A DNA stretch of 63,373 bases, counting the filler, from Rhizaria sp. SCN 62-66 (taxonomy: Eukaryota), in NCBI GenBank assembly GCA_001724265.1. It is 10 parts of 10 records of this genome, joined end to end, with 100 filler letters (N's around TTAATTAATTAA, not from the genome) between each part and the next. Parts side by side here need not be neighbours in the genome. Positions count along the whole stretch, not along the records: positions 17,810 to 25,443 come from MEDY01000649.1; 9 more parts are not named here. The stretch is one strand, 5' to 3'. Of the stretch, positions 5,145 to 54,977 are shown in pieces. The notes below the pieces were generated by a model. The model was not told the origin of the DNA. It saw only the letters and a list, made by a program, of their open reading frames with translations, and ran no database searches. Both the position numbers and the translations under genes were made by a program. The stretch's first letter is position 1. Each line of letters opens with the position of its first letter.

Positions 5145-5154
5145 AAAAAGAAGA

Positions 5155-5225
5155 TGCGCTGCCCGGGACTCGAACCCGGATCTAACGCTTGGGAAGCGTC
5201 AATCTTACCCCTAGACGAGCAGCGC
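5155..5225 (-). tRNA. tRNA-Gly(CCC)
   Basis: GCGCTGC/GCAGCGC acceptor stem, GACGC-TTCCCAA-GCGTT anticodon arm, TTCGAGT T-loop, followed by an oligo-T Pol III terminator. Confidence 0.95.
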
Positions 5226-6289
5226 CGTCCTTGATTTGCTCGAACAAACCTAGAGATGCACTTTTAGTGCGAATTTAATGTATACAAATAATTAACTTTT
5301 GATGTTGTTTATTCAATATTTGTATGAAATCTGTCTATATATTGGCTAGTCTTTGACTAAAACGTTATAGTTGATATGTATAAGTTTATTGCAAAATGTG
5401 CAGGCAAGTTTCTAAGTTTGAGACCTCGAGTATGGCAATATAATTGCATTCTGATGTTGTGCTGATGTCGTTACTACTAGTACTAGTAATCTTCGACGTC
5501 GTGAATGCACTCTACAACATTATATTTTGGCTCTTGGGTATTAATACATTTAGAATCGTCAACAAAAATGCCATATCTGATGTAAGTTTGTACATTTATT
5601 TGATTTGCCCAAGTATTGGTTGCAAAAAGCTTGTCCAAAGTTTGAGTAGCTTTTCAAGTGGTAGTAGTACTAGTACTAGCACTTGAGAAGCAAGTGTGAA
5701 AGAAACCGAGCTAATCTGAGGCAGCATTAAACTCTTAGGCAATTTTAAGGATGTTTAGTTGCTTTGATAATACTGTTAGGTTCTTGATATAGTTTCTGTC
5801 TTGTTTCAACTCGAGTTCACCAAAGAACTACAACTTGAAGCAGTAAAGTTTTGCGTGATCTTTTCCTACGCTTCTCCAACTGTTATAGTAATCAGTATTC
5901 AAGCCAGATTCAAGTTTATCTTCATACTCTTGCTTTTGAAGTCGTTATCTTTTCAGTATCGAGAGCGTCAGTTGCTGTTGATGTTACCACTGTCACGCAG
6001 CTTGACAACTGCTGAGACACAAGTGACAATGTTGTCAAGAGGAACATGATTTAAAACATCATTTGAGTAACACTACATAACAGCAGTGATGATTGGACCT
6101 ACAACATCTCGTGTCATGCAAGCGGAGGAGCACGAATCAAACTGCGCGAGCTCTGTATTGCGTTAAGATGCAACGCTTGAGCGAATTTACTCTGCAATCG
6201 CCAGGATCCAGGCGTTATGGGGAGCAAAAAGTAAAAGAGACGACTTCGTTGGAAGAGACAGGCAGGCGTTGGGTGGACAAAAAAAGAAG

Positions 6290-6361
6290 CTCTCTGACCG
6301 GGAATTGAACCCGGGTCTCCTCCGTGACAGGGAGGAATACTAGCCACTATACTATCAGAGA
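6290..6361 (-). tRNA. tRNA-Asp(GTC)
   Basis: TCTCTGA/TCAGAGA acceptor stem, CCTCC-CTGTCAC-GGAGG anticodon arm, T-run terminator. Confidence 0.95.
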
Positions 6362-7068
6362 TTACTGGGGTAAATGCCAAATTTTAGTATATAAATTAGT
6401 TTATATTAAAATTTATTTTTATGATATCTTGTGAATTTCGTCTGTATCGACCGAAAAAAACTTCTTATGATGAATTGACCGCTTAATTTTATGTTTCAAC
6501 AAAATTGCAGACATAACTGAAGCTGTTAACGCAAAGAGAAAGCTCGTCAAATACTGTCACGACAGTTCATCCTGTCATTTGCGCTACTGTATCACCGCAC
6601 ATCGACGACAATGTAGCTAGACACGTCATATCGTTATACCATCATTAATTATGACAATATGTTATTTAAGCCGTTTGAGCATTAAACATATCGAAGTTTT
6701 AGAGCGACTCTACTGCATTATGCTAGTTATTATTAGTACTAAAATGTTACTAGTACTAATACTACTACTAGTAGTAGTATTAATACCGTCGTGTCACCCA
6801 CGCACTGATGGTCTTGATACCAACAACAAAGACATCGATGACAGACGTGCGTTGTTCGTTGCAGCCGTCAAATGTAGGCCACAGTCACTGCGGGAGGTCA
6901 CTGCTGCAAAATCTGCAACAAAAGCTGAACCTCCGTAAGTCTTGTACTGTCGCGCGTCCTGGGTTTATGTAACCGAGCATCATCAGCAAGGCCGGGGCAA
7001 AAAGATAAGCGGTCGCGGCCACGTTTGTTTGCGTGTGCGTTGGGGAAGGAAGACTGAACCAAAAAAAA

Positions 7069-7141
7069 TTCCCACTACGGGACTTGAACCCGTGTCTCAG
7101 CAGTGAGAGTGCCGTATACTAACCACCTATACTAAATGGGA
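7069..7141 (-). tRNA. tRNA-Glu(CTC)
   Basis: TCCCATT/AGTGGGA acceptor stem, CGGCA-CTCTCAC-TGCTG anticodon arm, T8 terminator. Confidence 0.93.
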
Positions 7142-7226
7142 TGCTTGTTGTACAAAGAGGACCAGCCTGGAGCAGAGCAAAGGGCAAGGGCGTGAGGGAA
7201 AGCGATAACGTGGAGGAAAAAAAAAG

Positions 7227-7298
7227 TGCGCTATCCGTGAATCGAACACGGCTCTAATCGTTGGCAACGATCAATCATAACCACTAGACCAATAGCGC
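7227..7298 (-). tRNA. tRNA-Gly(GCC)
   Basis: GCGCTAT/ATAGCGC acceptor stem, GATCG-TTGCCAA-CGATT anticodon arm, TTCGATT T-loop, T9 terminator. Confidence 0.93.
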
Positions 7299-7890
7299 CA
7301 CATAAACAGACGAATCTGCTCAATTAGATGTCTGTTTTTGTCAAATCTAATATTTAAATACTATTAAAATTGTTTCTTTAAACGCAAATATCTCTCTGTA
7401 ACTATGTTCCACGGTCAAATTAATGCTACTATAATGACAATTACATGTGATTAATAATACTTTTGGTTTTTCTCTTGTAACTCTTAGGTACTCGGAAACG
7501 CATGTACTAGTACTAGTACTAGTAAGTTTGACTATCCGAAGATTTGCTCACAATAGACTGCTGTGTCCAAATTAAAAGACTGTATTTGTTCTCCATCATA
7601 ACGCAAATGCTTATTTTCTTTAGTTTTCTTGTGTTTTTTTCAGCATCAGAGCGCATGACATCAATCTCAGAATCCACCTTCCCCAGTCGCGTGTTGTTTA
7701 ACAACATAGCATCAAACTCACTTACTCTGACTCATGACGTTTCATTGATTTGACATTGCAGTTGAGTCGACTCACAAGTCGCAATTCAGAGTTAGCACAG
7801 CAAAGGATGACGTTACCACTTGTTGTGCAGGTTAGTGAGCCTGTTGCTAGAGTGCGTTGGCACCAAGTACATGCTTAGAGCAGAGGTGAC

Positions 7891-8181
7891 TTAGTTGTTG
7901 CGACGGTTGGACTGGTTGCGGTCCTGCGACGACTGGTTGCGGTCCTGCGAAGACTGGTTACGGTTCTGAGACTGTTGCGAGCGACCCGCCTGTGCCTGCT
8001 GCTCGTTCTGCTGCTGCTGGCTCTGGGAAGACTTGAGGTTGCTCTGCGCCTGCTGCTGCTGGCGGGAGGACGAGGACTGCTGCTGCTCGTTGCGGTCGCT
8101 GCGCTCGTTGCTGCGGTTCTGAGCGCGGTCGCGGTCGGAAGACTGGTTCTGGTTCTGGTTATTGCGAGGAGCCTGCGACAT
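7891..8181 (-). CDS. Small Q/N/S/R-rich disordered (hydrophilin or prion-like) protein, 96 aa
   Basis: ACC-ATG start and strong GC3 codon bias (CAG, AAC, TCG, CGC) inside an AT-richer spacer. Internal NQSSQDR repeats. Composition changes sharply at the TAA stop. Confidence 0.6.
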   Translation of the reverse strand: MSQAPRNNQNQNQSSDRDRAQNRSNERSDRNEQQQSSSSRQQQQAQSNLKSSQSQQQQNEQQAQAGRSQQSQNRNQSSQDRNQSSQDRNQSNRRNN

Positions 8182-9896
8182 GGTCTTGTGGGGTGCTGTT
8201 TAAGTCAAAGTAGAGCAAGAAAGGCAAAATGAACAATTTGTGAGCTGAGGAAAGTATGTAACAACTTGAATTAGTCAAAAAAAGCACTTAAAACAAGGAT
8301 TATTAATGCATAGCGCCAAAAAATAGCAAGTTTCCAAAGTCGTAGATCACATCTGACACGGCGGAATCAACGTCAAAAAGATCAAGTAGAATTAGGACAC
8401 AAAAACAAGCAAGTCAAAGAGTTTCCTCAAAAGAATAGACTTGTGTTCGTGTCTAGCGTCAAAAGAAATAAGATTAAGACTTAGACACGATTAGGAAATG
8501 CGAAATCACATGTTTGAAGTAAACGTGCAAATCTTCCCTCGCCCACCGCCACCGCGGAAGCCGCCTGTGACGTCAGTCAGTGAACAGCCCAGACTCACAG
8601 TGACTGTGAGCATATTGCTTAAACTAGCATATTTCGATCGTTAAAGTGTGTTTTCTGTTATCAACACACTTGAAATAAATTGTTTTGACTATTCTTGTTT
8701 CTACTTTGCGATTTAAGTGTTGCTTCCTGAAGTTGTCTTTCGTGTTGCTAACACTCTTTGAAGCAGTGAACGTGCTTGCAAAGCTGAATTTGCAATGATA
8801 TACTTTTTTTCTGGGAGCAAAACTAGAAATCAATTGTAAACTGTGATATTACATTATAAATCTAAACGTTCACCCAAATCTCGCATGTCTTATTGATAAA
8901 CAGCAACAACAAAAACCCCTATATTCAATATTGTGCATAATTATAAAACCTATTGCTTCAGAGCGATACTCTGTCCTACAAGTTTATACTCTAAGTTTCA
9001 AACAAATTTTATATCATTCTATTTTAAATGGAATTTCATTTCAATATATTTCACTTTCCATGTTGCATATCTTGTTGAACGTACAAGATCTTCTGGTCTC
9101 ACATCACGACAATGATTTACAAGAGTATAACCACTCAAGATAAAGATATTTACTTATAAAACTCAAGTATCCGCTTGGTAGTCTGCCTCTGTTTTTTATA
9201 TGTGCGCGCAATAAACTTTGGAATCAGAACAAGAGCGTTACAGATATCATTTGAGTGTTACTCCTTAACTCTCGTTGACAATCAAGATCTGTCTGTGCTT
9301 TCACGCTCCTTCTTGACAACAACTCTGAAGATATATTACTGTGCACATAGAGAGATATTGTGCGCGTCTTTTGTTTTAACATGGCAGCTGTTCGTGTATG
9401 TTGTGTCGTAAGCCATTGTGCAAGGCACGTCGAGCTGCGTACTAGTACCTCGTCGAAGTGGAGTTCCTGATGACTAAAGTTTTACAGACTGAAAGGCGCC
9501 TCTCTCTGCTGTTCAAGTTATCTGGGACTTTCTTTTTATGTCAAAGGTGTCCATAGACTCACAGCTGTTGTCGATGACTCCGTCGTCGTCGACATCAGCG
9601 TAAGTTCCTTTAGCCTCAGTAGCCGCGCAAGGGTGACAGGCTCACAACACAGTTGCTTGTGTGAGCCAGTCCTCGCCCGTGAAGCCCGTTTTGCACTTGC
9701 ACTATATCAGATGAGATCATGTCAGATCATGCTAGCCTTCGCAATTGCTCATGACGTTAGCAAAGAGTTTCACGTGACAAACGCGTTGATGTGTTGTGTC
9801 TAAACTGTAATACGCTTTGATCCCTATTATATAAAAGTTTTTGTTCAAGTTGACACACAGCGACGTGTAAGTACCCCCTTACAGTGTCTATGTACA

Positions 9897-9969
9897 TCCC
9901 ATTTAGTATAGGTGGTTAGTATACGGCACTCTCACTGCTGAGACACGGGTTCAAGTCCCGTAGTGGGAA
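9897..9969 (+). tRNA. tRNA-Glu(CTC)
   Basis: Inverted copy of 7069-7141, followed by a T-run. Confidence 0.93.
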
Positions 9970-10466
9970 TTTTTTTATGCACGGGTCCAATCAGGCCTTC
10001 CGTGCAGCGCGCGCTCACCACCCAGCGCAGCCCGCTTGCTGTGTTGGGCCATCAACGCTTCCTTTTTGCTCTCTCTGCTGCGTGCCGTGCCTGTACGCCT
10101 TTGCTGTGCACCTTACGCGCGCGGGCACAGCTGCTGACGTGCTCGTGCGCTCCGCAGCTCGTGACTTGTGCCTGCACTGGTCTTCCTTGTTGCAAGATGT
10201 CCAGCAGCATAATCATTCAGCACAACAGAGCAACGTGTCTTTCAAGGCGATGTCTGTCAGCACCAGGTGACGTCAAGGAGTTGAGCGTGATATTAATGCT
10301 GTGATCTTGTTTGTGAGTAATATCGCAGAGCATGATGTGGCGACATAAAAAGTTGGCATAATGCAGTGAGTCAGCTTGAAACTTCGATGTGTGGCATAAT
10401 CAAACAGCCTGAGCAACATATCGCGGAACTTGACTTCGGAATTGCGTCACAGCGCTGGCATCGCGA

Positions 10467-10533
10467 CTAGTACTACTAGTAGTACTACGTAGTACTAGTA
10501 CTGCTACTCGTACTACTGGTAGTACTAGTAGTA
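10467..10533. repeat. Palindromic (TAGTAC/ACTAGT)n microsatellite, one of several in the tRNA spacers
   Basis: Similar tracts at about 5473-5488, 5662-5681, 6735-6783, 7505-7524 and 11642-11680. Confidence 0.8.
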
Positions 10534-10741
10534 TCGCATTCATTGAGCTCTAGCTTGAAGATTAATATGTCAACGTCAGGCCATAATCTATATGATGAAT
10601 TGTAACACAAAAATACAATATTAATAATATATTACGAAATTTGCGTTGTCAGATTCCCAACTCACCGTCACGAGATATTTTAAAAAAAATAATTCAATGC
10701 AAGATATCTTATATATTAAATTTTGTCCGTTACTCCAGTAA

Positions 10742-10813
10742 TCTCTGATAGTATAGTGGCTAGTATTCCTCCCTGTCACGGAGGAGACCCGGGTTCAATT
10801 CCCGGTCAGAGAG
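10742..10813 (+). tRNA. tRNA-Asp(GTC)
   Basis: Inverted copy of 6290-6361. Confidence 0.95.
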
Positions 10814-11882
10814 CTCTTATTTTTGCACCTTACGCGGCCCGAACACACAAGTACACGCGCTGTTATTCTCGCCCTCGCGAACTTTTTTTTGCTCATCGAT
10901 GCGCTCTCGGTGTTAAGCTGGTTCACTAACTTTTTGCGCATCGCATAAGCAACAAGATGTCGGTTCGCTGTTGCTTGTGACTGTGTGACACTGTTGCAGG
11001 CTCTCAGCACTGTTAGCTTGATGTCCTGATGCTATCTCGCGTAACAAGAATTGTGTGACTAAGGCATCAATGCTACGACACGCAATTCGTCGAACAGTTG
11101 CTGTCATGAATCCTAGTTTGCTGGAGAGTGCGACAGCAAAGAATGACAGTTGCTCGTTGCTGCACTCACTGTCACTCATGACTGAGTAGACGGAATTTCA
11201 GCAGTCGACAGTGACGAGAACGAGTCAAACGACTCCGAATCGTGCCTGAAGAGTCGGAATGTACTTTAGTAAGTCAAAAGGTTCGATGAGGATAAGGATG
11301 TTGATGAAAGCGCAACAAATAACCACAGAAACGTGAGAAATATCGAGCAGCGTTGGGTAAATGAGCTGTGACCGTTAAAGTGGCGTGATACTGTTAAGTT
11401 GGTTTGATGTCAATGACCATATAGTGAGTTTCCAACTCAATTTCGTCCGACGAAATTGTGCAACCTGAAAAGTTGCACAAAATCTTGACAAGATTTTTGC
11501 AATGGATCCTCAGGTGAAACACGTGAGATGTTAATATAAGACAGTCTATGTGCTATTATAAATAATTTCAAGCAAATCAACACACAAAAACGAGACTTCA
11601 TAGTTATACTAGTAACAGCCCTACAGCAAACCCAAAGTGAAAGTACTGTACTAGTAGTAGTATTAATACTAGTAATAGTTGAGGTTTCAAACTAAGCGTA
11701 TTTGCAAAAAAGTTTAAAAGAGTAGAAAAAAATGCAATAACCTGTATTATCAGCCGTTAAAAAGACCCTATACGCTGTTTGTGCAATGAAAACAGTTTCG
11801 TTTTAAACGTATTTTAAACAGTATTATATAGTAAATTCGCCTTATCAGTGCATCTCTGGTTTGCTCGAGCAAATCAAGGACG

Positions 11883-11953
11883 GCGCTGCTCGTCTAGGGG
11901 TAAGATTGACGCTTCCCAAGCGTTAGATCCGGGTTCGAGTCCCGGGCAGCGCA
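11883..11953 (+). tRNA. tRNA-Gly(CCC)
   Basis: Inverted copy of 5155-5225, ending in TCTTCTTTTT at the contig end. Confidence 0.95.
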
Positions 11954-12998
11954 TCTTCTTTTTNNNNNNNNNNNNNNNNNNNNNNNNNNNNNNNNNNNNN
12001 NNNNNNNTTAATTAATTAANNNNNNNNNNNNNNNNNNNNNNNNNNNNNNNNNNNNNNNNNNNNCTTCTTACGTGTTGCCTCCGCATCCCCAGTCTTTATC
12101 AGCTCCTCAAAGATAGCAACTTTGAGCCACCAGACCATGTAGGAACCTCTGCGGACCGGGACTCCCGAAGGAGCATCCTTGTGACGGGTACTTAAGTTCA
12201 ACCTTTTGTCCTCTGACATCTAGTCATCAGGTGAAAATGCGATATAGAGAGTTGATGTTTTGACCTGAAGTTTAGAGGGAGGTTTGATGGGGCTAATCTA
12301 CGCGTATACTGCAAGAAACACAATAATAATTTAAAAAACTTGTTTTAAACTACGCATAAATTACAATTCATACAGTTAAATTTACATTGACGGCTATTTC
12401 ATGTGGTAATCCAGTGATGTTTATTGGGGATGGGGAGTCTGGCCGAGTGCCGCCACACCACAAACATGTGGGGGAAGAGGCTCAATCGGCCCACCAATTT
12501 GTGACCCCCCTGTTAAGGTCAGAAACAGACGTTGCCTCAGGACTATGTGAATAGGGGGAATGGAAGGGTCTGCACATATCCGCATATGTGCGGAAACGTT
12601 GCGTCGTGATATTATTCTCCTTCATTTGGATATCGCGTAGAATCTGCGGCTAACTTCCTCGTAAACGTATGAGCCAGCACCACTCACAGTTCGGCCTAAC
12701 TTCTCGTTCGTCGAAAGTCATAGTCCGCACTATCAGAAAAGTGCACGTAGCGGACAATGGCAACGCTAGATTAACAAATGAACGACTTATTTTGTAGACT
12801 TACTAGTTGTTTACGTATTCTTCAACGTCATATCCGACAACTACGCTCATTCCTTCCTGCTTCCCTTTTTATTCTTAAACTTTCCAGAAGGTTCCTTGAC
12901 GCCGGTTTTGCCACAATGTTACGCTCAAAGCTGCTATCCGCTGTGCTGCAGTCGTCTGCTAGCAAAGGGCTAGTACGTGGCCTTGCCGCACACATGCC

Positions 12999-15900
12999 AT
13001 GCACATTCCGAGCCCCCATTTCGGCTCGGTCGACACCCACCGTCGGGCGTCTGCCGTCGCCGTCGACGATTCTTCCGCTCCAAGCCTTCCTCTCCTCACC
13101 TCCAAGTCCCTTCCCATGGCAGACCTCCTTACTTCCTCGACGGTCCTTCCCGCGCTGGCTCGGTCCGCTGGGAATGATGAGTTTTCGGCCGACGCTGTCG
13201 ATGCCTCGGACCTCACTCCAGGCAACTTCGTGCTCGGATCTGTTCGTCCAGCCTACGACCGTGAGACGCGGTGCGACGGCAGTCTCACCGCCAACTGCAA
13301 CTGTACGTCCGCGTGCCCCTGCAGCGCTTGCCGCTACTCCCGCACAATCAGCCCTCTCCGCTTTCCCAACGACTACGGCTCTGTTGGCGGCAGCGACAGG
13401 GCGTGGGCCGCGGTGCCGCCCCACCTGCACTGGGCGCGACAGGTGCGGCAGCAACTGGTCCGCTCGCTGGTATGGTCGCAGTCGCAGCAGACACAGACTG
13501 CATTGCCTGTGGTCGGCGCCGTCGCACGGGCGTTCAGCACAGGTAGGGGCGCCGCAGCGGACGAAATAGTGATTACTGGTGCCGCCGCGCAATTAGCCGG
13601 GATTTAGCTTGATATCATGCTCTTTAAAGATGACCTAGCTGAAGCCAACACGACTCTGCGCCAAGTCAGGTCGCAGCGCCGGCGTCTCCCCATGGCTGAA
13701 CGCAAGAACCTTGATCCCGAAGTGGCGGAGGCTGAACTAGCCGTGGCTGTCGCTCAAGCTCAGCTCGATAAGGCTAAGGCTGCGTTGGCGAAGGAAAAGG
13801 CTGAGCAGCAGATGATTGAGCGTAAGGCTGCAATCAAGGAGGCGGAGATGGTGCTGGCTGGTGCTACGGAGGCATCGCGTCATGGTCAGATCGTTTCCGC
13901 CAGGGCACCATACGACGTTGGGTCTCTCTCTTGTGCTGAAGCTGAACAATCTGTGTTGAAAGCTCAAGCCGAGCATCGTGTTGCTCAAGCTGAGTTTAAC
14001 CTGATGTCTGCTGATTTTGAGGTTGAAGTTGCTCGCCTCGATCGCGCGGAGGCTCGTGTAGCGTATCATTTGGCGGAGCAAGCCCAAAAGGCTGTGTCCC
14101 ACCAAGCCAGAGACGATGTCGCACATGCTTCTAAGCTCAATGATGCCGCGTCTAGGTTCGCGACGGCTGAACGCAAAGTCGAGAATGCGATTGCGAACCG
14201 CAATGCCCCATTTCAGGAGTTTCAGGTCGCTTCTCTCGAGCGTGACCTAATGTCAGCTCAAGCTGCGCGCGATAGCCTACAACGGAGGGTGCTCTTCAAT
14301 GATCATCTCGCAAACAAGAAGGCGGCACAGATTCAGCTGGAGCAAGCGGAGATTCATGTCGCAAATGTGGAAAACAAGCTCCGGAGGCATGTGCCTTTCT
14401 TGGGTGACGCGATGACACCGATGGGTAAGGCTGATGCTGCAATCCAAGCCAATTTCGCTGCGTTCCTCGAAGCCCATGCTTCAATGAAGTGGGACGAGGT
14501 TAAGTCTGATTTCTTCCATACTCTCGCCGCTCCAATGCTTCTTGACAAACCCAATACCAAAGCGAGCTTTCCTTTTGGTGGCAAAGGTCACCCGACTACT
14601 CAAAGCCTTTCTTTATTAATGTTGCGCAAGTCACATACTAATTTGTACAATCTTCTGTTGTCTCAGCTGTGCGCACGTAAGGCAAAGTAGTATGGGCTTG
14701 CGAACACATGTTTAGTTCGCGGCCCGCCTGGTACTGGCAAGACTGTGATGCTCAACTTGCTTTGGTACGTTGCACGTTTTGACCTCAGGATGGACGTACT
14801 TTGTCATCATGCAGGCGACGGGGTCTATTTGTACGCGCACAACAGCGACACGGTAATGAAGCTGCAGCCAGACGATGCTAAGGACTGGTTACGCAAGGAG
14901 AACACTGTGTACCTCTTTGATCCTAACGAGGCTAATACTCTGCCTCTTTACCATGAGAGCTATATCGCGACAAGTGTGATTGCAACATCTCCTGATGTAC
15001 GACATTATATGAACATCAGCAAAGGGGTTGGCTCGTATTCCAAAGACGCAAATGTTATTGATCTGTGGTCTTATGCGTGGACGTATGAAGAGATCGACGA
15101 AGGACTTCGCCTCTTGGGCAAGAAGCCTTTGAAGGAGTTACCTGAAGTTGATAAAGTAGTCAAACTGTTTGCTGGGAGCTTTCGTGTCGCCTTGAAAGCT
15201 GAACATGCCAGTGATTTTAAAAACCGTGCATCTGGAGTTTCCACTTTCCTGGGAGCAGAACAAGCTTTGGAGCAAGTGATGAGCAGTGTTGATCAACGCG
15301 TTTTCGACCAGCTGCGGTATGTTAATACTCGGGAGGGTTTAGCTGACAAAATGTATTCAGGTGATGCTAGTTTTTTCAAGCTTTCGCATTACATCGTTAC
15401 GAGCAGGACTGATCCCAAAATGCCAGAACCCAAGACGGCGCTTCCGCAGTGGATCGACAAGTGTAAGGTAGCAACAACTAAGCAGGACATAGAGAAGATG
15501 ACAGCAGAAATGCTTGTTAATGCCAAATATCTCAGTAGTTGTGGCCTTGAATGGACAAGCGATGAGGCTGCGGAGGCTTTCTTTAAGCGCCTTTGCGAGT
15601 TTGGATACTTTAGCCAACTGCTCAATCTTATTTTTGTGCTTCCAGGTAGCACCAAGGGGGGTATCTTTGAGGCTTTGCTGCTTCGGATGGAACATCCGGA
15701 ACCGTATGTACTTCGGGACGCGTCCAACAAAGTTACTCGCCCGCCTATCAATATGTCATACTTGCGCCGCTATCCAGAGAGCCAAAAGCTCCGCAACATC
15801 AATGTGACAACTTTCGAAGGTAACGACGCACCATATCTGCTTGTTGCAGACTCACTGCACAACCTTCAATCCTCTTCTGGTGATGTACGTGAGGACGCAG

Positions 15901-16418
15901 ATCCTGCTGCCCTTGCGCGTTTAACCTGGCGTCTTGATGCATTGTCCCAAAATCATCCTGACTTTGATTCATACTTGATTGATCATCCCCATGGGTTTAT
16001 CAAGAACACTAGCCCTGGTGAGAAAATCAAGAAGCCCCGCCTCGTTCTATTCCAATTCACAATCGGCAAGGAGCATTCTTTTTTCCCTGGGCGCGTTTTC
16101 CGAAAGGTTCAAGAGTTCAAGCGCTCGTTGGGGAAGACACTGGGATTGCCAAAGGGCGACGAGATCGACGTCGATATTGTTTTCATGTCGACACATGCAT
16201 ACGTTAAGCTCGAAGTTTCAAAAAGGGAGAAGGTTTTGACGGAGTAGCAAATCAACAAAGGTGTGGAGGGTGTGACACAGGATGACATTGAAAAAGGAAT
16301 GAAGCTGCCTCTGTACTTCATTCATTTGGACGGAACTAAAGGAGTTGCAACGGATGCTAAAAAAGTTGCAACGAATACGAATAATGAGCAAGCCATTGCG
16401 TCAAGTATTTCTCGGTAA
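12999..16418 (+). CDS. Crinkler/RHS-type protein: coiled coil + P-loop NTPase + PD-(D/E)xK-like nuclease; start uncertain; three internal TAG codons
   Basis: ORFs 12999-13607, 13617-14690 and 14745-16247 are all in one frame, separated by TAG. Reading through TAG 14688 gives LMLRKSHTNLY...CLVRGPPGTGKT (Walker A). The C-terminal NHPDFD...LFQFTIGKEH resembles CR-REase motifs. The frame continues past TAG 16245 to TAA at 16416-16418. Confidence 0.7.
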
Positions 16419-19400
16419 TCACCTGCATGCTTTTATCGAACGTTATTAATGTCATGTTTGCAACGACAATTATTATTAATAATACAAGAACCAACAACAA
16501 GACCTAATTTCCAATTAGTACGGTCGATTGTACAGATAATGGTCGAATATTCAGAGATAATGGTGGATTTTTGTATTTTCAGACTTAAAAATGTCGATCT
16601 CAATCAAACGATTATAATTAATTATGAAACTATTTTTATTTATACATGTATCGCAGAAACCTCGGTATATACACTTTTGGTGAATATAAAACTGTCTTTT
16701 GATTGTGTCGCTTTTGAAATGTGAATTTCTGTATTTAAGGGTTACTCAAAGAATGGCCTTTGAGTTCGGAAAGCTGTGACAGAGAACCAAGACACACAGT
16801 GGCTTCAAGTCTTCGTCAAAACATAGCAAAAGTGCTCCGTACTATCAGCCGCAGAGTTTACAGTAACAGGCTGACCGTCGTAGCGAATCTTGGGCACCAT
16901 ATCAATGCGCAACACAAGTGCGCATGTTGCGGCATGACACACAATACCAAACAGTTATCTATTCACATGTGATATAACCGTTCAATACCCTACACATTTG
17001 AACGAAAAAAGCTATGGGCAACACACAAAGCCGTTAAAATTCCATTAAGGGGCTCCATGTAGATAAACAGGGCGTTGTGTAGATGTTCGATACAAGCGAA
17101 TGACAATCTACATTATGATGAATGAAAGATAAAATTATAATTTTACGATCGAATCCGCTTGATCATTTGCACGCGTGATAATGGATAATACCGTTATCAT
17201 GCGGTTGTTTTTGGGGGCTGTTCCTGTTGCTGTTCTGTGTGTTGGTCATCAAAATATGTTTGTTTTTGCGCGGTTAGAGACGCCCCGTTTTTTTCTGTTT
17301 TTTTTTTCTTTTTTATTCACCAATTGATAGCCATACATTAGTTATGTTTGCAAATGAACATATTTGATACCAAGACACAACATAAAGTAGCAATATCTGC
17401 TCAACTCACGTGAGATGAGCTTTCGCTAGCTTGTTGCTGGTGTTTCAAAATAATTAGGTCGAAGTGTGTCGCTTCCAGCATGAAATAATCGTCAATCGAT
17501 TTGTCCCAATATGTTTTAACAGAAACATAAACCTATACATGTATTGTGTTTGATTAATTCTACGTTGAAACTCATTGTATTTGTCCTGGAGTCGTTCGAG
17601 TGGTCACCGGAACTCTTGGAAAGTACAAACTTAATTTTTATTTCCCTTCAATACAGTCTTCGATATACAGCATAATTGAGCATATTCCTTGGTATCCTTA
17701 CATATAAACNNNNNNNNNNNNNNNNNNNNNNNNNNNNNNNNNNNNNNNNNNNNTTAATTAATTAANNNNNNNNNNNNNNNNNNNNNNNNNNNNNNNNNNN
17801 NNNNNNNNNTCGAATTATATGTATTTAAATGCTTATCATTTACACAAGAAACACCACTTTTGAACACAGAAACACCACCTTTGGACACAGCGAGGGGAAT
17901 ACACCGTTTGGCCGTCTTCGTCACCGTCTCACATGCTTTTTTATGTAAAATGTCGTGCGTCACAAATCCTTCTGTGTGTGTTCACAGAAAACACCACCCT
18001 AATTAAGGGAGCTTGGGAGGTCGTTGGGTGCCGTTTCTCTGTGGATTTCCTGTGAGAGAGTCCCTTTATGTAAAATCTCGCGCGTAACAGTTTTGTGGGT
18101 CAAAATTGTGATGTCAAACAAACAAGTACATACAATCAGCTTCACAAGTCGCATTTAAGTTGATTGAATCATTAACGGTAATATACCTCCCAGAGTAGTG
18201 TTGTCACGCACTTTAACGTGACGGCAGCGTACTTGCGGCTGCTGTTCAGCAAGGGCATATCGGTTGCTGTTAAAGACCTTAAAATACCGGACACTCGCAA
18301 TTTCATCAACAGCCGCACACACCGCTGCATTAGCGACAGTGCAGCAGCGGGCGGCGCACCATGGACCGACAGCGGGGGGAGCGAGAGCGCAGACAGCAAT
18401 CATGCGCCGGGCCTCGTTATCCGCGCAGTTATCAACCCGGGTGTCGCTGGGGGCAAGCAACGCGAAAATTCGTGTTGCTCAAGTTCCGCCGCAACGTAAG
18501 CGTTAAAAGCCTTCGTCCAGCCGTCCGCAAAACACGGGGCAAAGCGCGTAACGTCATTCCCAGCCTAGATGAGCTCAAGGCGGTACTGGAGCGTATTATC
18601 GGTAAAGATCTTGCTACAGTCGGGGGATGCTTGAATGATCAACAATTTGCGCATTACGGGGCTACTTTGGCTGCCACCGAGAGTGCGACTCGCGGCCATC
18701 AACGTCGAAAACCTCCCGGCGCAAAGAGTTGTCGTGGTAGTGTCTGACAAAGCGACTCGCTAGCACGTTCTAGCCCCGCGCGCGCTGCTCCCGCGTTGGG
18801 CCAGTCTTAGCGCAGGTAATCAGCCGGCGCAGCAACCGCAGCACTTGCGCCACAGTGTCGCTGCCAACCGTTTGTTGACGCCGTCGCGGGCGAGTTTGAG
18901 GCTCTTGGTCATGACCAAGAGTAAAAAGCATGGTCCGAAGTGACACGCTGCAATACACGAACAGAAACACACGATAGATAGACATATGAAAAACACCGAA
19001 CTAAAAGAAAGATAGGAAACCAGATCAAAAATACCATATTAACGTATTTTTCCTGAACTGATGATTTATATGCTAGACTTTACGATCACATGGAAGCCAG
19101 ACGACGCGTCGCAGCTGTTGCGACAGTGTCTTCTGCGACAACAATCGAAGTACTAAAACAACACGAAGCATGTGGCTAGCAACGCATATATGCAATCTAA
19201 CCCAAAACACACGAAGGGCGCAACATAGTGCGCTCAAGCCCTGTCTGAGGAGTCTGAAATGACCAGGAGCACATGGAGAACTGAGACTTTGCACACATTC
19301 AAGACTATGTACAGTACTAATTGAGGCCTTCACGATTAAAAAATAAAGAGTATCAAATTTCATTTACTCCGCCATATATGTGGCGGATTATTCAACTTAA

Positions 19401-22400
19401 AGTCGTCATTAGTGTTGCGCTAGACCCTGTTTACCTCCTAGAGAATCCTTGTTGAGTTGGACTACGCGCGCCGCGACCCCCTTCGGCGGTCACACTGTGC
19501 GCGCGGCAGCGCGCTCTGTAACCAAGTTTATGTTTGTATTTTGCGTCGATGGCCGTGCGTACCTTGCATTTCGTGCTCTGATGCGCGTGTTGGCGCGCGT
19601 GCCGCGCTGCCAGTCGGTGGCGCACGACCTGTGCGTAGCTTCCGCGCGCCGCCGTCGGCCCCCTTCGCGCCGCGCCGTTCTTCCCCACCCCCGTAACACT
19701 CTCGCGCCGACTTTGCGCTATTTTTATTATCCATCTCTCTCTCTCTCTCAGTGCGGCCGCCGCCGGCGCCCTCGCACTTTGTCACTGCTGACACTACACT
19801 GAGCGCACCTCTGCTTCTCTGTTTGTCTCTTTCCTATGACGTGCTGCTCATGTCGCTCTCAGCACGCGCTCTGCTTCCCTTTATTACGCGTTTCATTTCT
19901 GCGCCGCGCGCGTGTTTGACTTTTGCGTTTGTGTTTGCGTCTCCGCCGTCGGACCCCGCCCCGGGTCGGTACAATGGCGGTCACGGTCCCGCATCCGTGA
20001 CTTAGTCCTATAATGAGTGCCGACGAGGCGGGTGCGGCTTTGCCGCGCTCGCTTCGGGCGTGGTGTGTTTCCAGTTCTGTAAATCCCTGTTAGGTCTTTT
20101 TGACTGTCCGGCTTTTTCCTCCTCTCTTCGTCCTCAAGTCGGCCGGGGCTGGACTTGTAGAAGCGGCACTTAGTTCGTTTTTTTGCGCCGTCTTCTTATT
20201 CATAACTGAATACGTTACTGCCTTAACAGTTCAAAAGGTGACAAACTTGCTGAAACGTACCGCCTCATAATGTCCTCATTAAGTAAGCTTCTAAAGTTGG
20301 CGTCCTTTTGATCGACACTCACCAGTATAATATGTCATCTGCTCGCCCTTCCGGCTCTCAGGTATGCAAGCATGTTTCAATTATCATTCTGTGTAATAGA
20401 AATCATTCTTTTTGATCGACACTCACAAGTATATTATCTGCTCGCTCCTCCGGCTATCAGCCCCTTGCCTCTACCCTCATTTTGACCAATGGTGACTGAC
20501 TATTTGGTCCCGTCTTAATTGGCAACGCTCGGTCTGCGGACCGGGAAACCGCGCCCAAATCGAGGCGCGCTCGCACCCGAAATCTTCATGAACATGATTG
20601 AATAGGGCGCAGATATCTGTGATTTTTCCGTCAATTGACACTAAAACTGCATTATTTTAGTAATGTTTGAAAATATAATATCTTTATAATTTTCTTTACG
20701 TATATGTTTAACCCTGTCATCCAGCGCTCCGAGAAAGTGGTGGTCAGTTCACAGGAAGTGCAGGCGCCGTCGGCGCCAGCGGCGTGAGATGATCATCATA
20801 ATGGATGTACGGTGCACTGGAAGGTCAAAGCCTATGTGCAAAACGTGGCAACAACCGGCTTTTGCGTGCTTGTAAGCGCATTTATGCCTAAAATCTGGGT
20901 GGCAGGCAAGTGGACCATTGGACACCAACGTAATCATTTGTCATCGGAACAAATATCATGCTTCGTAGTTTCAACTTCTGGCATTATGTGTATATTGTGT
21001 TTAATGTGAGTTAAGATTGAATATGTGTTCTTGGGTTAGCGATTTGACATTAGTAAGATGGTGAAATCGTTATCAGTAGCGGGCGCCACGAGGCGCTGTT
21101 TCACGATTCTCTCACCGGGCACCAAGGTTCTGATCAGGGCCATTTCACAAATCAATTAAAAATACGTGTTCTATTAATGTCATCACATTTCGTCCAGTAG
21201 ATCTCATATTTTCACTCACAAGTACTAATACTGTGATTTTCGGCTCGTTTTAAATCCGTGTTTTGACACCAGCCACCACTGCCTCTTTGGCCCACCTCGG
21301 GTCATTGTGGCCGGCGCTGGCGTCATATGATTGACTTTCGTCACAAAATTCTGTGTTTAAGCACAAGCTGAGACAATAATTGATTTTTCACTATTTATTG
21401 ATCAAATGGTGTGCTTACCTGCTCTATCGTCCCAGACTGAGCATACTGCGCTTCGCAGCCTCATGAAGCCTTGCAGCCACCGCGTCCAAAACATCAAGGA
21501 CGACGCGGCAACGCGCGATATTGCAGTGGTAACGCAAGATCAGTGCGTGTTAATTACAACGCGCAGTACTTTTGGTCTTCAAGAGCTCGGCATTGTCTTC
21601 ACCAGACCCGAGCCATCGGTCGGCCCCAGTAACAGGTTTGGCCAGGGGCTGGCGTCACCACCCAGAGCAATGCTGACGGCCTCGCGAATCACTTTGACAG
21701 TGAAACATTGATATTTATTGCCAGTAATCCTCCAGGTGTTGGTATGATTGCTTTGTTTCGCAATATCAGCGCTCAAGGCATCGATGCCCAGTCAACTGCG
21801 GTCTGTTACACCGGCGTTAGGTGGTTTTTACTTGTATCACCGACTATAGATGACACGAGTAAACAATTGTGTATGTATTTAATATTGATAATGAATAATA
21901 AGCTGTTTTATCGACTTTAGTTGATCGATCACCTTACTTTATGCAACCAGCAGCTCCAACCCAGTCTCAGACAAGGAGGTTACGGTCAGTAAGCTCAGAT
22001 CATCGTCATTCTTGTGACTTATGTTGACATATGTGCAAGTTCCTCGGAAATAATTAACTATCAATAATATGTATGTTATTAATGCGGTTTTAACATTGAT
22101 TTGTACGATCTTGCGTAATATTAGCACATGCATGTTGTGATAATGTCATTTCGCGCCATTGACTGTGGCAGTTACTGGGGCTTCACTAGCCGCGGGCTCA
22201 TCATCATCGCACCTCTAAATCAAAAGTTTGACACTGATGAAAAGGTTAACATGTACTGTGTGCGCAACGCTGGTTTTCTGCGTCTTCTACCATACCTCCG
22301 CTCCGCTATGGGCCCTTTAGCCCGGCCGGCCGTGTCAACCCCTACCCACATCAGCTCATCCTTATGGTCAATATCTCACAATGATGTGAAAAATGTGGTT

Positions 22401-22618
22401 GGGGCTGTTTGATAGCATGATTATGAATAATCAGTGGGATGCATTGCTTAGTACAACCATTCAGACCTCGATTCATCATGAGGGTCACACTCAGACTTGG
22501 CTGGCAAGGGGTGAATCCAGGTCAGAATGCGATTCTGAGTACTACCTTTCAGTGGTGATTTACGTTACTCTGAGAAATCCCCTGATCAGAAGACCACCAA
22601 ATGCTTGGTAGGTCAAAT

Positions 22619-23465
22619 ATGCACAGCTATCAATATATTAACTTTAACAGCAGCGCCACTGTCAACCAAGACTGTGCGGCAAACGTTAGCTCCAATGGCA
22701 CCATCATTGAATGGGTGGTCATGCTGAGGTGCAGATTGTTAGGGCCTCAGCGCCTTTGCTGGGTTTGCCGTTGGGCAATAAGAAGCATTTTGTAGGCTGC
22801 CATGTCGGCGTCGTGGGTGCTACAAAGGAATTCCAGGAGAAGCTGATCGATTTCTTCACGGTTGATGATTACTATAGCCCACAAGCCGTTTGCAATGCGT
22901 TCAACGCTGCGATGGTATCCACATGTGCTGCTGCGACCCCGGTCGTGCTTCCTGCTGACGTGCCTGTGCTGTCAGTGAGCGCCTCGGGTCTGTCGCTAGC
23001 TATGACGACTGCGTTTACGACAGCTGGCTGGCGAGTGGGCTTCAACGACATCAGCTATGCAGTGCTAGGAGCTGGATGGAACACTCGGTCGAACATTCGA
23101 CCGGCTGAACTGCTGCAATATGTGCTAAGCGATGGTGCCACTGGTTTACAAAACTTCTCCACGTTGGGTAGCCTGTATATGAACAAAGAAATCGTTATCA
23201 CCAGCGGCACCATTCCCATTGTCGGTGAGGTCAACAGTGGCAACACCGCAAGCTACAACCTTTGTGTGTTGACCGAGTATGACGTCTCGGCTGTCAACTT
23301 TCGACAGAACGTCGTGGTGATCCCTCAAACTGAGCGTTGGGCAGCCCGCAGGCAGATCTCAGCGTTAAAGTGTATGCACGTGATGCTTTCGGGCAGTTGA
23401 CGCCGCAGAGGATGCTGCCTGGCACGCATTTCTCATTGAAACTTTGTGTTCGCTATTATGAGTAA
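22619..23465 (+). pseudogene. Virophage-type minor capsid (penton) protein with two frameshifts
   Basis: Penton-like motifs VQIVRASAP-LP, YYS...FNAA, QNFST...IVITS-TIPIVGE and VLTEYD. The N-terminus (MHSYQYINF, 22619) and the C-terminus (ADLSVKVYARDAFGQL...FSLKLCVRYYE-TAA) lie in other frames, with shifts near 22710 and 23340. Confidence 0.7.
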
Positions 23466-23485
23466 GCACATAGTTTTCCACACAC

Positions 23486-24093
23486 ATGGGATCTAAAAAT
23501 AGTAAGGCAAGCACGGACAACGACACAACGACATTCGGTTGATGCGTCGTATGAAAAACGATGCCAACTTCCTTACAGACCTGTTGAGTCGACCTAAGTC
23601 TGATGTAACACGCATTGCCAAGGAGGTGATCGTGGCTGACGCCAACAATCTCGTTGCATCATTGGTTAACAAGCGTGACAAGTTAATGGCACAGCGCGAT
23701 AAGTATAACGCTTTGAAGGCGAACCCAAAGAGTGCATATGCAAAGCTACCTTGTGGACAGCGTGGGGCTATAACTAAGAAGATCAATGCAGAGATTTAAA
23801 AAATCAACGCTGAGATTAAAGAGAAGAATGTGTCGCTAGAAGATATCGCCGATGTTGAGAAAGCGAGTGAGGTTGACACCGATGAGATCGGGGAATTCCT
23901 CACAAAGTATTCAGCACCTGCACCCGCTACACCGACATGCGCTCTAGCACCTGCACCATCTATCGCACCTGCCCCAGCCCCTGCACCATCTACACCTCCT
24001 CCTGCCCCAGCCCCTGCACCCACTACCGCATCTGCCATACCTGCAACTCCGCCACCCCGTGTGAATGCCGTTCGAGTTAATCCTGCGATTTAA
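23486..24093 (+). pseudogene. Small disrupted gene between penton and MCP (MGxxxSK start, basic helix, PA-rich tail)
   Basis: MGSKNSK start, a frameshift near 23540, then ORFs 23539-23799 and 23830-24093 in one frame, separated by a TAA inside a KINAEI duplication. Confidence 0.45.
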
Positions 24094-24207
24094 ACTCATG
24101 GTGATGGTGATATGAACAACATCATGGTAGGTGGTAATTGACATATAACAATTACAATTACATTCACATTTTTGTCATAGCTCTATTGACAAAGTGTAAA
24201 CTTTCCC

Positions 24208-25443
24208 ATGGCAGATACATCCAATATTGATTATACGCCTTCGTGGCCCGTGTGCAGCATCATCCATCCTAAATCTGAGATTCCCGTTGAGTTCGGTGTG
24301 ATCAACAGTGACTACAAGGTTGCCGTCTCACAGAGTGGCACCTCGATTCAGAACGCTGTGTTCAACTTCAGCGTTAGCAAACAGAATGTGTTGTCGCAGG
24401 CCGTGTATGTCAAGATCCCCATCGAGTATAGCTTCAGGTTTACCGCTGGTGGCACCGTCCGTGACCTTGACGGCCATAACAACTGGTGTTAGGCCAATCT
24501 GGCGCCTCTGCGGGCTATTAGTTGTTGTGCAGTGACTATCGGTGGTCGCACGTTTGACCGCGATACTGCTACTCTGGCCGGGCTATGTGCCCACCTGTAT
24601 CCCACCGACGTGCCTATCCTGTCGGGTATCTTCCCCCTGCCCGATTAGACCGCTAGCCTTGATAGCACCCCGGCAACGAATTACAAGTTGGCTCCGTTTG
24701 GTAGTCCTCTCAACACGGCTTACGAGTTTTCGCAGGCACGCAAGAGTTCACTTGATAAGGTCACCTACTACACGGCTGCTGCTCCTAACACCGTGCATAC
24801 TGGCGCCCTTGTGAACGGCACCGTGTATATTTGTCGAATCCGTGGTAACTGGGACTTCCCGCTGCCGTTTAATATGTTTTCACCGGTTGGCGGGCCGGGC
24901 ATTGTTGGAAGTGGCAGTGTCGTCGTCGATCTTACCTTTAATCAGCGCTGGTTGGATTGCATTAAGTTCCGCAATAATACTGTTCTCGACACTTACGCTG
25001 ACGGAGATCTAACAGTTAGTTTTACAAGCCCACCGTCGTTGACTTATTGCATCCACCATTTATATGATGCTGTTTGTGAGTCTAGCATGTCCAAGACCCA
25101 GGTTTATCCGATGTCAAACTATATCAACCGACGTGATGCTGTCACCCTGTTGGAGGCTGGGGCTAGTAAGGACATCTTCACTTCAAGCACGTCTGTGAAC
25201 ACCATTCCAAAGAAGATTATCATTAGCGCTCCACGAGTGGCTGTGAGTGGTGACACTAATATGCAGCGTATGCCTACCGGCAATAGCTATGCACCTATCA
25301 GCGGCCTCACCGTGTCGCTGGGCGGTCAAAACGTGTTCTCCTCGCTTGATTCCGCGTCTCTTTGGCGTCTGAGTGCCAAGAATGGATCATCGCAAACGCT
25401 GGCTAGCTTTTTGAAGGGCGGGTCGGTCATTCTATCGCTTGAG
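24208..25443 (+). CDS. Virophage-type double jelly-roll major capsid protein (3' truncated), two internal TAG codons
   Basis: One frame, open except TAG at 24490 and 24646. Motif order matches Sputnik-like MCPs as I recall them: FNF..S.QNVLSQAVYVKIP, APL.AI....VTIGG, P.LTY...YP, TIPKKI, ISGLTVSL.GQNVFSS.....LW.LS.KNG..QT...F..G.VI.LE. Confidence 0.8.
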
Positions 25444-53693: not shown

Positions 53694-53951
53694 AAAGCAG
53701 ATCGACGGTTAGCATGGATTTTTATCACCCTTTCTTGCCTGCTACCGCCCAACCATCCTTTCAAACGTGACTCTATCTTCCCCCTTTATATGTCCTCCAC
53801 CTTTATATGTCCTCCACGCGTACTGTTATCCTCCTTACTATACTGTATGGCACAGCCCAGTTAAAATGAACCTTTACTGTTTCTCCCAGCTTCCACTGCC
53901 CCTGGCAGCAGCGCAAAACAAATTTTATTGGATCTGGATCGACTTCGATCT

Positions 53952-54000
53952 GGATTGATTCTCATTTTAGACAAGTACTTTTCTCATTTTAGACCTACCC
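53952..54000. mobile_element. Probable MULE terminal inverted repeat
   Basis: ggattgattctcattttagacaagtacttttctcattttagacctaccc lies downstream of the transposase. A near-identical copy is at 58588-58636 on the next contig. Confidence 0.65.
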
Positions 54001-54977
54001 TTTGGTGTATAAAACTACGATGTTTGAGGTATTATTAGGGTTAATAATGGGTATTGGATATGCAAAGAATAGCGATCCTAGTGTGCGGGCGGGCGACAAT
54101 CTGTCACATTGATTGAACATTGTGCATAAGCCGCTCACTCGGCCCCCATCCCACGCCTACAATGGCACAATTTATTCAAAAGTTACCAATGCCATTGTCA
54201 GTTACAAAATGATGTTCCTGATCACGCGTCGGCTGCATCACGATCAGCGCTGCATCCGGGCAGCATCACGATCATGCTGCGATCATAAAGAGACACTAGT
54301 TAAGAACTCGTAGCCAAATAAAAAACCCCATATCAACAGGCTGTTATTTTGGCCGGATCTTGCCTACAATATGGTGGCGTTCCGTCCAGATCCCACTTTG
54401 TTCCTTCACTGGCCACGTCGTAAAAAGTTGTGTGCAACCGGTTGCACTCTCTGATCCGATCTGATTTCTGCCTGATTTTGTCTGATCAAGACGACTTATC
54501 TGCACCCTCTCGCGTTTAACGAGCTGCAGAGCGGCCCTAAGCCATGCCAACTTGTCACACAAGTGGCCATATATGTTTCCTCACTTGTATACACACTGCT
54601 ATCACGAGTTGGTTTATTAAGCAGTTCAATCACCCACGCGAGCTTTTTTGGTTCGACATCTGTTGTACACGGTGGTTACCACGCGCTACCTAATTGCAAA
54701 GCGGTGACGTGAATGGATACATGGGCATTATGGATGTTGATGCTATTGTTTGTACTATGCAACAAAATATAAAATAAGTATTATGATAATTCCAAAGGGG
54801 GGGTGTATTAATAAACGTGGTGGCCTAGCCACCAAGCTAAGTACTTGCGACCATCGATGAACGCCATTCGTTACTCACCAAACCAATAAAAATAGTGCGG
54901 TAGGAAATTAAAAACAATTAGCCAATTTCTTCAAAAACAAAAAAATACTGATACTGAATATTGACAAGACATAGAAA

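Follow-up and report, generated by a model that had tools for sequence, protein, structure and literature searches.

Virophages are known as endogenous elements of protist nuclei from the provirophages of Bigelowiella natans and the Mavirus-like EMALEs (endogenous Mavirus-like elements) of Cafeteria. In these systems the capsid genes occur in several diverged nuclear copies, some of which are broken, many elements are complete with an integrase and terminal repeats, and the hosts use the standard genetic code. Here we describe, in the assembly of Rhizaria sp. SCN 62-66 (GCA_001724265.1), a Sputnik-like capsid module whose major capsid protein (MCP) gene carries two in-frame TAG codons, and which is probably an integrated, decaying copy in a protist that most likely reads UAG as an amino acid. 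The stretch analysed, referred to as the window, is 63,373 bases long and is made of ten contigs of 5.0–7.8 kb each, joined by N44-TTAATTAATTAA-N44 spacers; the capsid genes are located on the fourth contig (window positions 17810–25443). The several diverged and partly broken copies make this locus resemble the endogenous systems just mentioned, whereas it differs from them in comprising only a capsid fragment and in its apparently UAG-sense host.

With Sputnik the comparison can be made gene by gene. The MCP matches V20 over nearly its whole length, an upstream open reading frame (ORF) matches V18/19 by predicted structure, and Sputnik has V18/19 followed by V20, which we take to be the same order as that of the penton-like gene and the MCP gene here. 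Unlike in Sputnik, a small Ala/Pro-rich ORF lies between the two, the penton-like gene is spread over three frames, the MCP gene carries two TAGs, and no other Sputnik genes are present.

Reassignment of UAG alone is known from only a few eukaryotes, among them the rhizarian exLh (Leu) and Iotanema spirale (Gln) (PMC5304391), and phyllopharyngean ciliates (Leu or Gln) (PMC11687900). Such UAG-only recoders resemble the genome considered here in having long ORFs with TAG but neither TAA nor TGA in frame, TAA and TGA serving as terminators; they differ from it in that the residues aligned with TAG here fit neither Leu nor Gln cleanly, Tyr being the best of the candidates over five sites. Among virophages, the nearest precedent that we found is an ochre-suppressor tRNA in metagenomic virophages (Paez-Espino et al., 2019; PMC6905037). 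There, the hint that some hosts have reassigned stop codons comes from the virophage's own tRNA for UAA, whereas here the hint is UAG inside the MCP gene, with no tRNA gene on the contig. Two further papers (PMC11502894, PMC12220804) concern code checks for phages or host genomes and not for virophages. In full-text searches we found no description of in-frame stop codons in a virophage capsid gene.

Results

A Sputnik-type capsid module with two in-frame TAGs

The features that carry our reading are as follows (window coordinates).

24208–25443, plus strand: MCP gene, first 412 codons (PF22031 and profile match)
24490–24492, plus strand: first in-frame TAG (TAG#1), MCP codon 95; also present in the metagenome contig L001
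24646–24648, plus strand: second in-frame TAG (TAG#2), MCP codon 147; also present in L001
22619–~22712, plus strand: possible N-terminal penton piece with start ATG at 22619, frame 2 (from three-frame translation)
22711–23400, plus strand: main penton-like ORF of 229 amino acids, Sputnik V18/19 minor capsid type, frame 1 (ESM Atlas model match)
23334–23465, plus strand: probable C-terminal penton piece, TAA at 23463–23465, frame 0 (from three-frame translation)
23539–24093, plus strand: small gene or genes with an Ala/Pro-rich tail, single frame, in-frame TAA at 23797–23799

As an earlier reading of this DNA from the sequence alone had held, the ORF at 24208–25443 is open only if both TAGs are read as sense; the standard code divides it into ORFs of 94 and 267 amino acids with a short piece in between. 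The ORF runs without a stop codon to the contig end at 25443, where a spacer follows. It matches the Pfam family PF22031 (MCP_V20_C) with 38.7 bits against a curated cut-off of 27, and a nine-sequence profile built around it matches Sputnik V20 (3j26) over positions 12–473 with E 1.4e-26 and, more distantly, the Mavirus MCP (6g45) with E 6.4e-09. By these profile matches the ORF is an MCP gene of the Sputnik V20 type, and the virophage type of the capsid genes, proposed in the sequence-only reading, is supported. A full HMMER search of 1.84 billion representatives at E ≤ 0.001, with a two-row profile consisting of the window sequence and its copy P0002, returned 23 relatives. Full-length relatives measure 578–620 amino acids, and pairwise identity to the nearest of them is 22–45%; P0008, at 45% identity (E 1.6e-139), is full-length at 578 amino acids and stop-free. 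Two copies, P0002 and P0004, add ~149 residues past the contig end and terminate in ..SRIL like the distant relatives, and the whole gene would therefore have ~561 codons, in which, with the C-terminus taken from P0002, the two TAGs are the sole lesions.

The gene order, penton-like gene, small ORF and MCP gene, agrees with that given in the sequence-only reading, although the proposed start of the element at 20700 does not hold: the penton reading begins at 22619, and no family matches anywhere in 20700–22600. The frameshifts previously seen in the penton-like gene are borne out, its reading spanning 22619–23465 and shifting frame twice, from 2 to 1 to 0. The 229-amino-acid ORF has no sequence match in Pfam, PHROGs or PDB, and its alignment-free fold, with a predicted local distance difference test (pLDDT) score of 30.4, was discarded. 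The ESM Atlas contains this ORF letter for letter, and the Atlas model aligns over 222 residues, at a template-modelling (TM) score of 0.69, to a cluster with 91% PF21507 (V18-19) members. An identical 229-amino-acid protein is on record for seven contigs, so the frame breaks are common to the copies and are not sequencing errors. We consider the ORF a candidate V18/19-type penton gene whose reading is split among three frames; the structural alignment is a lead and not a proof. Programmed frameshifting was considered as well and dropped, as inspection by eye found no slippery heptamer at either break.

The small ORF matches no protein family in Pfam or PHROGs. Its in-frame TAA sits in a short duplicated ..INAEI.. 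stretch, and it may represent two ORFs (23539–23799 and 23830–24093) or a single gene broken by the duplication.

In-frame TAG codons elsewhere in the window

The code of the host was judged from ~60 kb of sequence. The largest ORFs of four other contigs, in amino acids, are the following.

Contig 1: standard code 657; TAG as sense 1227; TAA as sense 657; TGA as sense 657
Contig 3: standard code 518; TAG as sense 1172; TAA as sense 518; TGA as sense 518
Contig 5: standard code 817; TAG as sense 1142; TAA as sense 817; TGA as sense 1072
Contig 9: standard code 338; TAG as sense 605; TAA as sense 338; TGA as sense 373

Because long ORFs on other contigs join up only if TAG is treated as a sense codon, the host appears to be UAG-recoded, consistent with the in-frame TAGs that the sequence-only reading had reported for host genes; 18 such TAGs are listed in nine ORFs on the other contigs. 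One of the genes concerned is a RecQ-like gene, in which two exons joined over a 50-nt GT..AG intron (43560–43511, minus strand) give a continuous, intact-looking reading, with a TAG at 43619–43617 in the exon, opposite a conserved Tyr. P0035, a paralog with 76% identity to the contig-3 protein, stops exactly at the position of TAG 1116, as would be expected if the TAG were conserved and the gene caller had treated it as a stop. The stop-terminated ORFs of the window end in TAA or TGA in all 14 cases and in TAG in none, a count that is partly built in, since only TAA and TGA were treated as stops when the ORFs were delimited. Seven long TAG-free ORFs have the same length under the standard code and with TAG as sense, hence none of them ends at a TAG. 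In-frame UAG is thus found in conserved genes of these ~60 kb with UAA and UGA kept as stops, and the organism most likely reads UAG as sense and terminates at UAA and UGA.

The eukaryotic character of the other contigs is apparent from their Pfam families, which include C2H2 zinc fingers, MULE and DDE transposases, a DEAH helicase, and TIR and Roc domains, with further matches to a ubiquitin-family domain, SPX and the RecQ-like helicase. The window has a G+C content of ~50%, and the host has transposase genes and the 50-nt intron just mentioned. The contig-1 protein has no internal repeats. The contig-3 ORF (12900–16415, 1172 codons) has a coiled-coil front and a P-loop (GPPGTGKT) and no Pfam or PDB match; its family is small, numbering nine proteins among 5.8 billion and including members encoded on contigs of 121 and 203 kb, and it may be a lineage-specific, multi-copy host gene.

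Residues opposite the TAG codons

The alignment at the MCP TAG sites took 14 of the 23 HMMER hits; left out were P0002 and P0010, as near-identical or the window's own, and seven hits that seemingly do not cover the TAG sites. Together with three sites in host genes, the residues opposite TAG read as follows.

MCP TAG#1: F, Y, F, W, W, M in six homologs with a hidden Markov model match over the N-terminus; Sputnik has F and six more distant homologs have M, F, L, L, L, P; Gln in 0 of 12 homologs overall
MCP TAG#2: variable, the 13 distant homologs having V, T, W, L, T, R, F, T, N, V, Q, A, T; Gln in a near-identical variant
RecQ-like gene: Tyr of the DFRxxY motif; three alignments printed, all to Bloom syndrome protein
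Contig-3 TAG 597: H, H, H, R, H, H, Q
Contig-3 TAG 1116: L in the one homolog reaching there, in a poorly aligned linker

Summed per-site mean BLOSUM62 scores are +7.15 for Tyr, +2.27 for Phe, +1.48 for His, +0.29 for Leu and −4.76 for Gln, with the RecQ site contributing much of the Tyr score. Of the three main candidates for the amino acid, Tyr appears best on these five sites, followed by Leu, with Gln worst. The expectation that the TAG positions align with Gln is not supported, and the sites speak against Gln as the meaning of UAG: it occurs in none of the 12 homologs at TAG#1 and, apart from the near-identical variant with a deletion described below, in one of the 13 distant homologs at TAG#2; its summed score is negative; the RecQ site has Tyr; and the contig-3 site 597 has His five times, Arg once and Gln once. 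Other ORFs did not add to the comparison: the four TAGs of the DEAH helicase ORF fall outside the parts that align to solved helicases, and two DDE transposase ORFs are too dissimilar to align for the meaning of TAG.

Copies and variants of the capsid genes

A word-indexed search of 5.8 billion proteins gave a single MCP cluster of six members, on contigs of up to 10.6 kb, with at least two sequence types. In the first, P0002 and P0004 start at a TTG directly after TAG#2, as expected of a standard-code gene caller if there is a TAG at that position. In the second, P0006 and P0007 read ..PLPDQTASLD.., with a genuine Gln codon in place of TAG#2. Translation of the window from 24486 in the +2 frame gives their first eleven residues, after which the sequence jumps, and a joint that skips 43 nt (24517 to 24561) in the metagenome runs X1 and X3 agrees with the frame change of P0006. 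This deleted variant also has TAG#1, because its out-of-frame reading passes through ..GTGTTAGGC... TAG#1 is retained in all three sequence forms that cover its site and predates the divergence of the copies seen, while TAG#2 arose, or was lost, within the family. The idea that the TAG positions are shared among copies thus holds for TAG#1 and fails in part for TAG#2, considering the Gln in P0006 and P0007. Intact copies without TAGs had been named as a refuting result, and no TAG-free copy was seen in this MCP lineage. Contig ends at 24488–24490 in X1 and X3 were considered as a sign of a TAG#1 variant; the 43-nt deletion, which lies 30 nt further on and makes the graph branch, explains them better.

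The only contig returned by the one metagenome scan was L001, a Joint Genome Institute (JGI) metagenome contig of 1609 nt that is identical to the window over 1430 nt, both TAGs included, and then differs at six positions in the last 58 nt. Within these 58 nt the window agrees with the other variant, so the window contig breaks at a variant junction, where the variants diverge with respect to L001. By manual reading the six differences are four synonymous and two replacement changes, a small hint of purifying selection on the MCP. In the alignment, P0009, a relative at 33% identity, starts in the very column where the calls downstream of TAG#2 start, which hints at an in-frame stop codon in a second lineage. 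No relatives were found in IMG/VR with queries A1, P0008 or P0009, or in a prokaryote genome collection with queries A1 or A4.

A poly(A) RNA library from activated sludge (X8) contains 90–95%-like pieces of the penton-like gene, the small ORF and the MCP gene, and also of the flank. This run consists of only 18 contigs, of which 16 are below 99% alike, and the library may contain DNA; as it covers the flank too, we do not claim transcription of the capsid module.

Sequence to the left of the capsid genes

The capsid genes share their contig with a host-type dispersed repeat and an apparently unique flank.

17810–18089, no strand assigned: high-copy dispersed repeat at the left contig end (depth, motif, contig divergence)
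18090–19339, no strand assigned: apparently unique flank, no recognisable gene (depth; no Pfam family in any frame)
19340–20104, no strand assigned: G+C-rich repeated stretch (summed depth 250–550 in X1 from variant contigs; no Pfam family)
20303–20361 and 20407–20460 (within 20303–20460), plus strand: two direct copies of a ~59-nt unit, 81% alike (repeat comparison)
20615–22618, no strand assigned: short ORFs without recognisable homology (no family at E ≤ 0.01)

A repeat shared with contig 1, as reported in the sequence-only reading, is confirmed. Contig 1 (192–233) matches 18051–18092 over 42 nt at 95% identity, and a 24-nt motif of the left-end repeat, at 17941–17964, at 18066–18089 and on contig 1 at 207–230, gives three matches in the window against none in each of 100 shuffles. 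In run X1 the summed depth of this repeat reaches 2979 against ~42 in the next unique stretch, a difference of up to ~70-fold, and 8–11 contigs diverge just past 18089 in X1, X3 and X4. All depth figures given here are per-contig sums, a poor measure of depth. The exact flank contig has a depth of 42.6 in X1 (18061–19611) and 5.8 in X3 (18062–19611), and the exact penton-to-MCP contig 24.9 and 3.4, respectively, a ratio of ~1.7 in both runs. As to the earlier concern that coverage might show the contig to be unlinked to the host, these depths give no separation between capsid part and flank, weak as the measure is.

The stretch 20615–22618 is present at depths of 70–577 in X1, with more variant copies than the capsid genes, indel variants among them, and with joints in X1 at 22349/22434, 22519/22525 and 22524/22552. 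In other copies, seen in three runs, 84 nt (22350–22433) are swapped for a 29-nt stretch whose end is a (TACG)n-like run, and other copies have 5-nt and 27-nt indels immediately upstream of the penton-like gene. The ORF at 21406–21708 has no ESM Atlas match. In all, 4.8 kb upstream of the penton-like gene are without a long ORF, and since the genomes of free virophages are gene-dense, the contig is unlike one of them. An integrated, decaying copy is probable because there are several near-identical copies, one variant with the 43-nt deletion and the left-end repeat common to contig 1; the contig divergence at that repeat and the broken penton on seven contigs point the same way, in line with what had been proposed.

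Regarding the habitat, three metagenome runs (X1–X3) of bioreactor or wastewater origin, from two studies, contain 77–81% of the sampled words of the contig. Runs X4–X9 contain 6–18% of these words and were left out of the habitat inference.

Other observations on the window

Contig 2 (5145–11963) is a large imperfect palindrome throughout, with complementary ends (140 nt at 94%, 106 nt exact) and mirrored tRNA genes, Gly-CCC, Asp-GTC, Glu-CTC and Gly-GCC on the minus strand and Glu-CTC, Asp-GTC and Gly-CCC on the plus strand; it is either a genuine inverted array of tRNA genes or an artefact of fold-back during assembly. Another family of short repeats, at 77–92% identity, is found on contig 1 (99–319) and on contig 5 (31029–31166 and 32115–32241), the latter also bearing the DEAH helicase ORF with in-frame TAGs, and a 51-nt dispersed repeat at 96% identity on contigs 9 (53951–54001) and 10 (58587–58637). 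On the minus strand of contig 9, a Roc-domain ORF (56722–57657) overlaps a TIR-domain ORF (54981–56795) in a different frame; the two are possibly one Roc-TIR gene divided by an intron or a frame change.

Discussion

On balance we consider it fairly probable that the contig at 17810–25443 holds a Sputnik-like virophage capsid module, with a V18/19-type penton, a small ORF and a V20-type double jelly-roll capsid protein, and that this module is a copy in partial decay residing in the nuclear DNA of an uncultured bioreactor or wastewater protist. The host would read UAG as an amino acid and stop at UAA or UGA. A virophage message, if translated, would use host ribosomes, and both MCP TAGs would then be sense codons causing no truncation. 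The TAGs would have been gained while the MCP was still functional, either in the virus or soon after integration, because TAG#1 predates the divergence of the copies and the MCP gene is better preserved than the penton-like gene, with no breaks in ~561 codons against two in ~280. In this explanation we infer the integration itself, the making of the MCP now or formerly, and the origin of the TAGs from a time under selection.

A number of findings weigh against this reading. The residues opposite TAG at the five sites disagree on one amino acid, and among the seven tRNA genes of the window, all on contig 2, none has the anticodon CUA. The frame-breaking 43-nt deletion in one MCP variant is a lesion within the MCP family, and TAG#2 is possibly one C-to-T change from a Gln codon, and a nonsense mutation would have the same appearance. 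The penton is in three frames, with the same 229-amino-acid ORF on seven contigs, and the family seen is therefore not a working virus. The earlier suggestion to look for further virophage genes found nothing on the contig: no packaging ATPase of the FtsK/HerA type, cysteine protease or integrase is present among its 70 ORF pieces, nor was a packaging ATPase, cysteine protease or integrase present among the long ORFs of the other contigs, and neither terminal inverted repeats nor the host junction were found. The sequence to the right of the MCP gene is missing, so ATPase and protease genes may lie off the contig. As for the linkage, the path from flank to capsid genes crosses repeats of depth 250–577 in X1, by which the assembler may be misled, and the depth in X4 is 24.8 for a variant 95% like the capsid part and 6.3 for a flank variant, a fourfold difference.

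Of the alternatives, the one that survives best, although we regard it as doubtful, is that a live virophage lineage, and hence a giant virus, replicates in the recoded host with UAG as a normal codon, the window showing one decayed integrated copy of it. The early origin of TAG#1 fits such a lineage, as do the four synonymous to two replacement differences of L001, the start column of P0009 with its hint of an in-frame stop in a second lineage, and the pieces of all three genes in the activated-sludge poly(A) library. On the other hand, neither an intact penton nor any gene for replication or packaging was seen, the RNA library also contains the flank and may contain DNA, no relatives were found in IMG/VR, and the window contains no giant-virus gene.

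We think it quite improbable that both TAGs are plain nonsense mutations in a dead MCP pseudogene, their identity with the TAGs of the host genes being a coincidence. The broken penton next to the MCP gene and the existence of the deleted MCP variant would be in keeping with a pseudogene, and the codons are suggestive as well: another variant has Gln at TAG#2, and relatives have W, Y or L at TAG#1, whose codons are one step from TAG. However, a TAG cannot be nonsense if the host reads it as sense, the MCP gene shows no TAA, TGA or frame break in ~561 codons while the ~280-codon penton has two breaks, and TAG#1 was kept in each of the three forms covering its site.

Least probable, and in our estimate very unlikely, is that the capsid genes come from a free virophage or another organism and were joined to host-like sequence by repeat misassembly or binning, for although the path through the repeats and the depths of the X4 variants would allow it, and a virophage in a UAG-sense host would bear TAGs whether integrated or not, the 4.8 kb without a long ORF do not resemble the gene-dense genome of a free virophage, seven contigs carry the broken penton, the three runs of two studies contain most of the contig's sampled words, and the ratio of flank to capsid depth is the same in X1 and X3.

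Returning to the decayed integrated module in a UAG-sense protist, which we favour, the element is of an ordinary kind, a fragment of a decayed endogenous virophage; what is new is its setting in a UAG-recoded wastewater protist. A wider claim would be that a wastewater protist reads UAG as Tyr or another amino acid other than Gln, with UAA and UGA as stops, and that a Sputnik-like virophage and a giant virus replicate in it, their UAG-bearing capsid genes being under purifying selection. We hold this to be unlikely as it stands, and no report of such a code turned up in our literature searches. The material is thin: the contig is cut, the penton is broken, and the host is represented by ~60 kb. 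The claim therefore stands as a lead and not as a result.

What gives this lead its interest is that virophages and giant viruses rely on host ribosomes, and a change of the host code should tie them to that host. An in-frame UAG in a virophage capsid gene would, if our reading is true, be a direct sequence mark of such a tie. It would also point to a giant virus and virophage system in a recoded, uncultured protist; under the wider claim, such viruses would be confined to hosts with this code.

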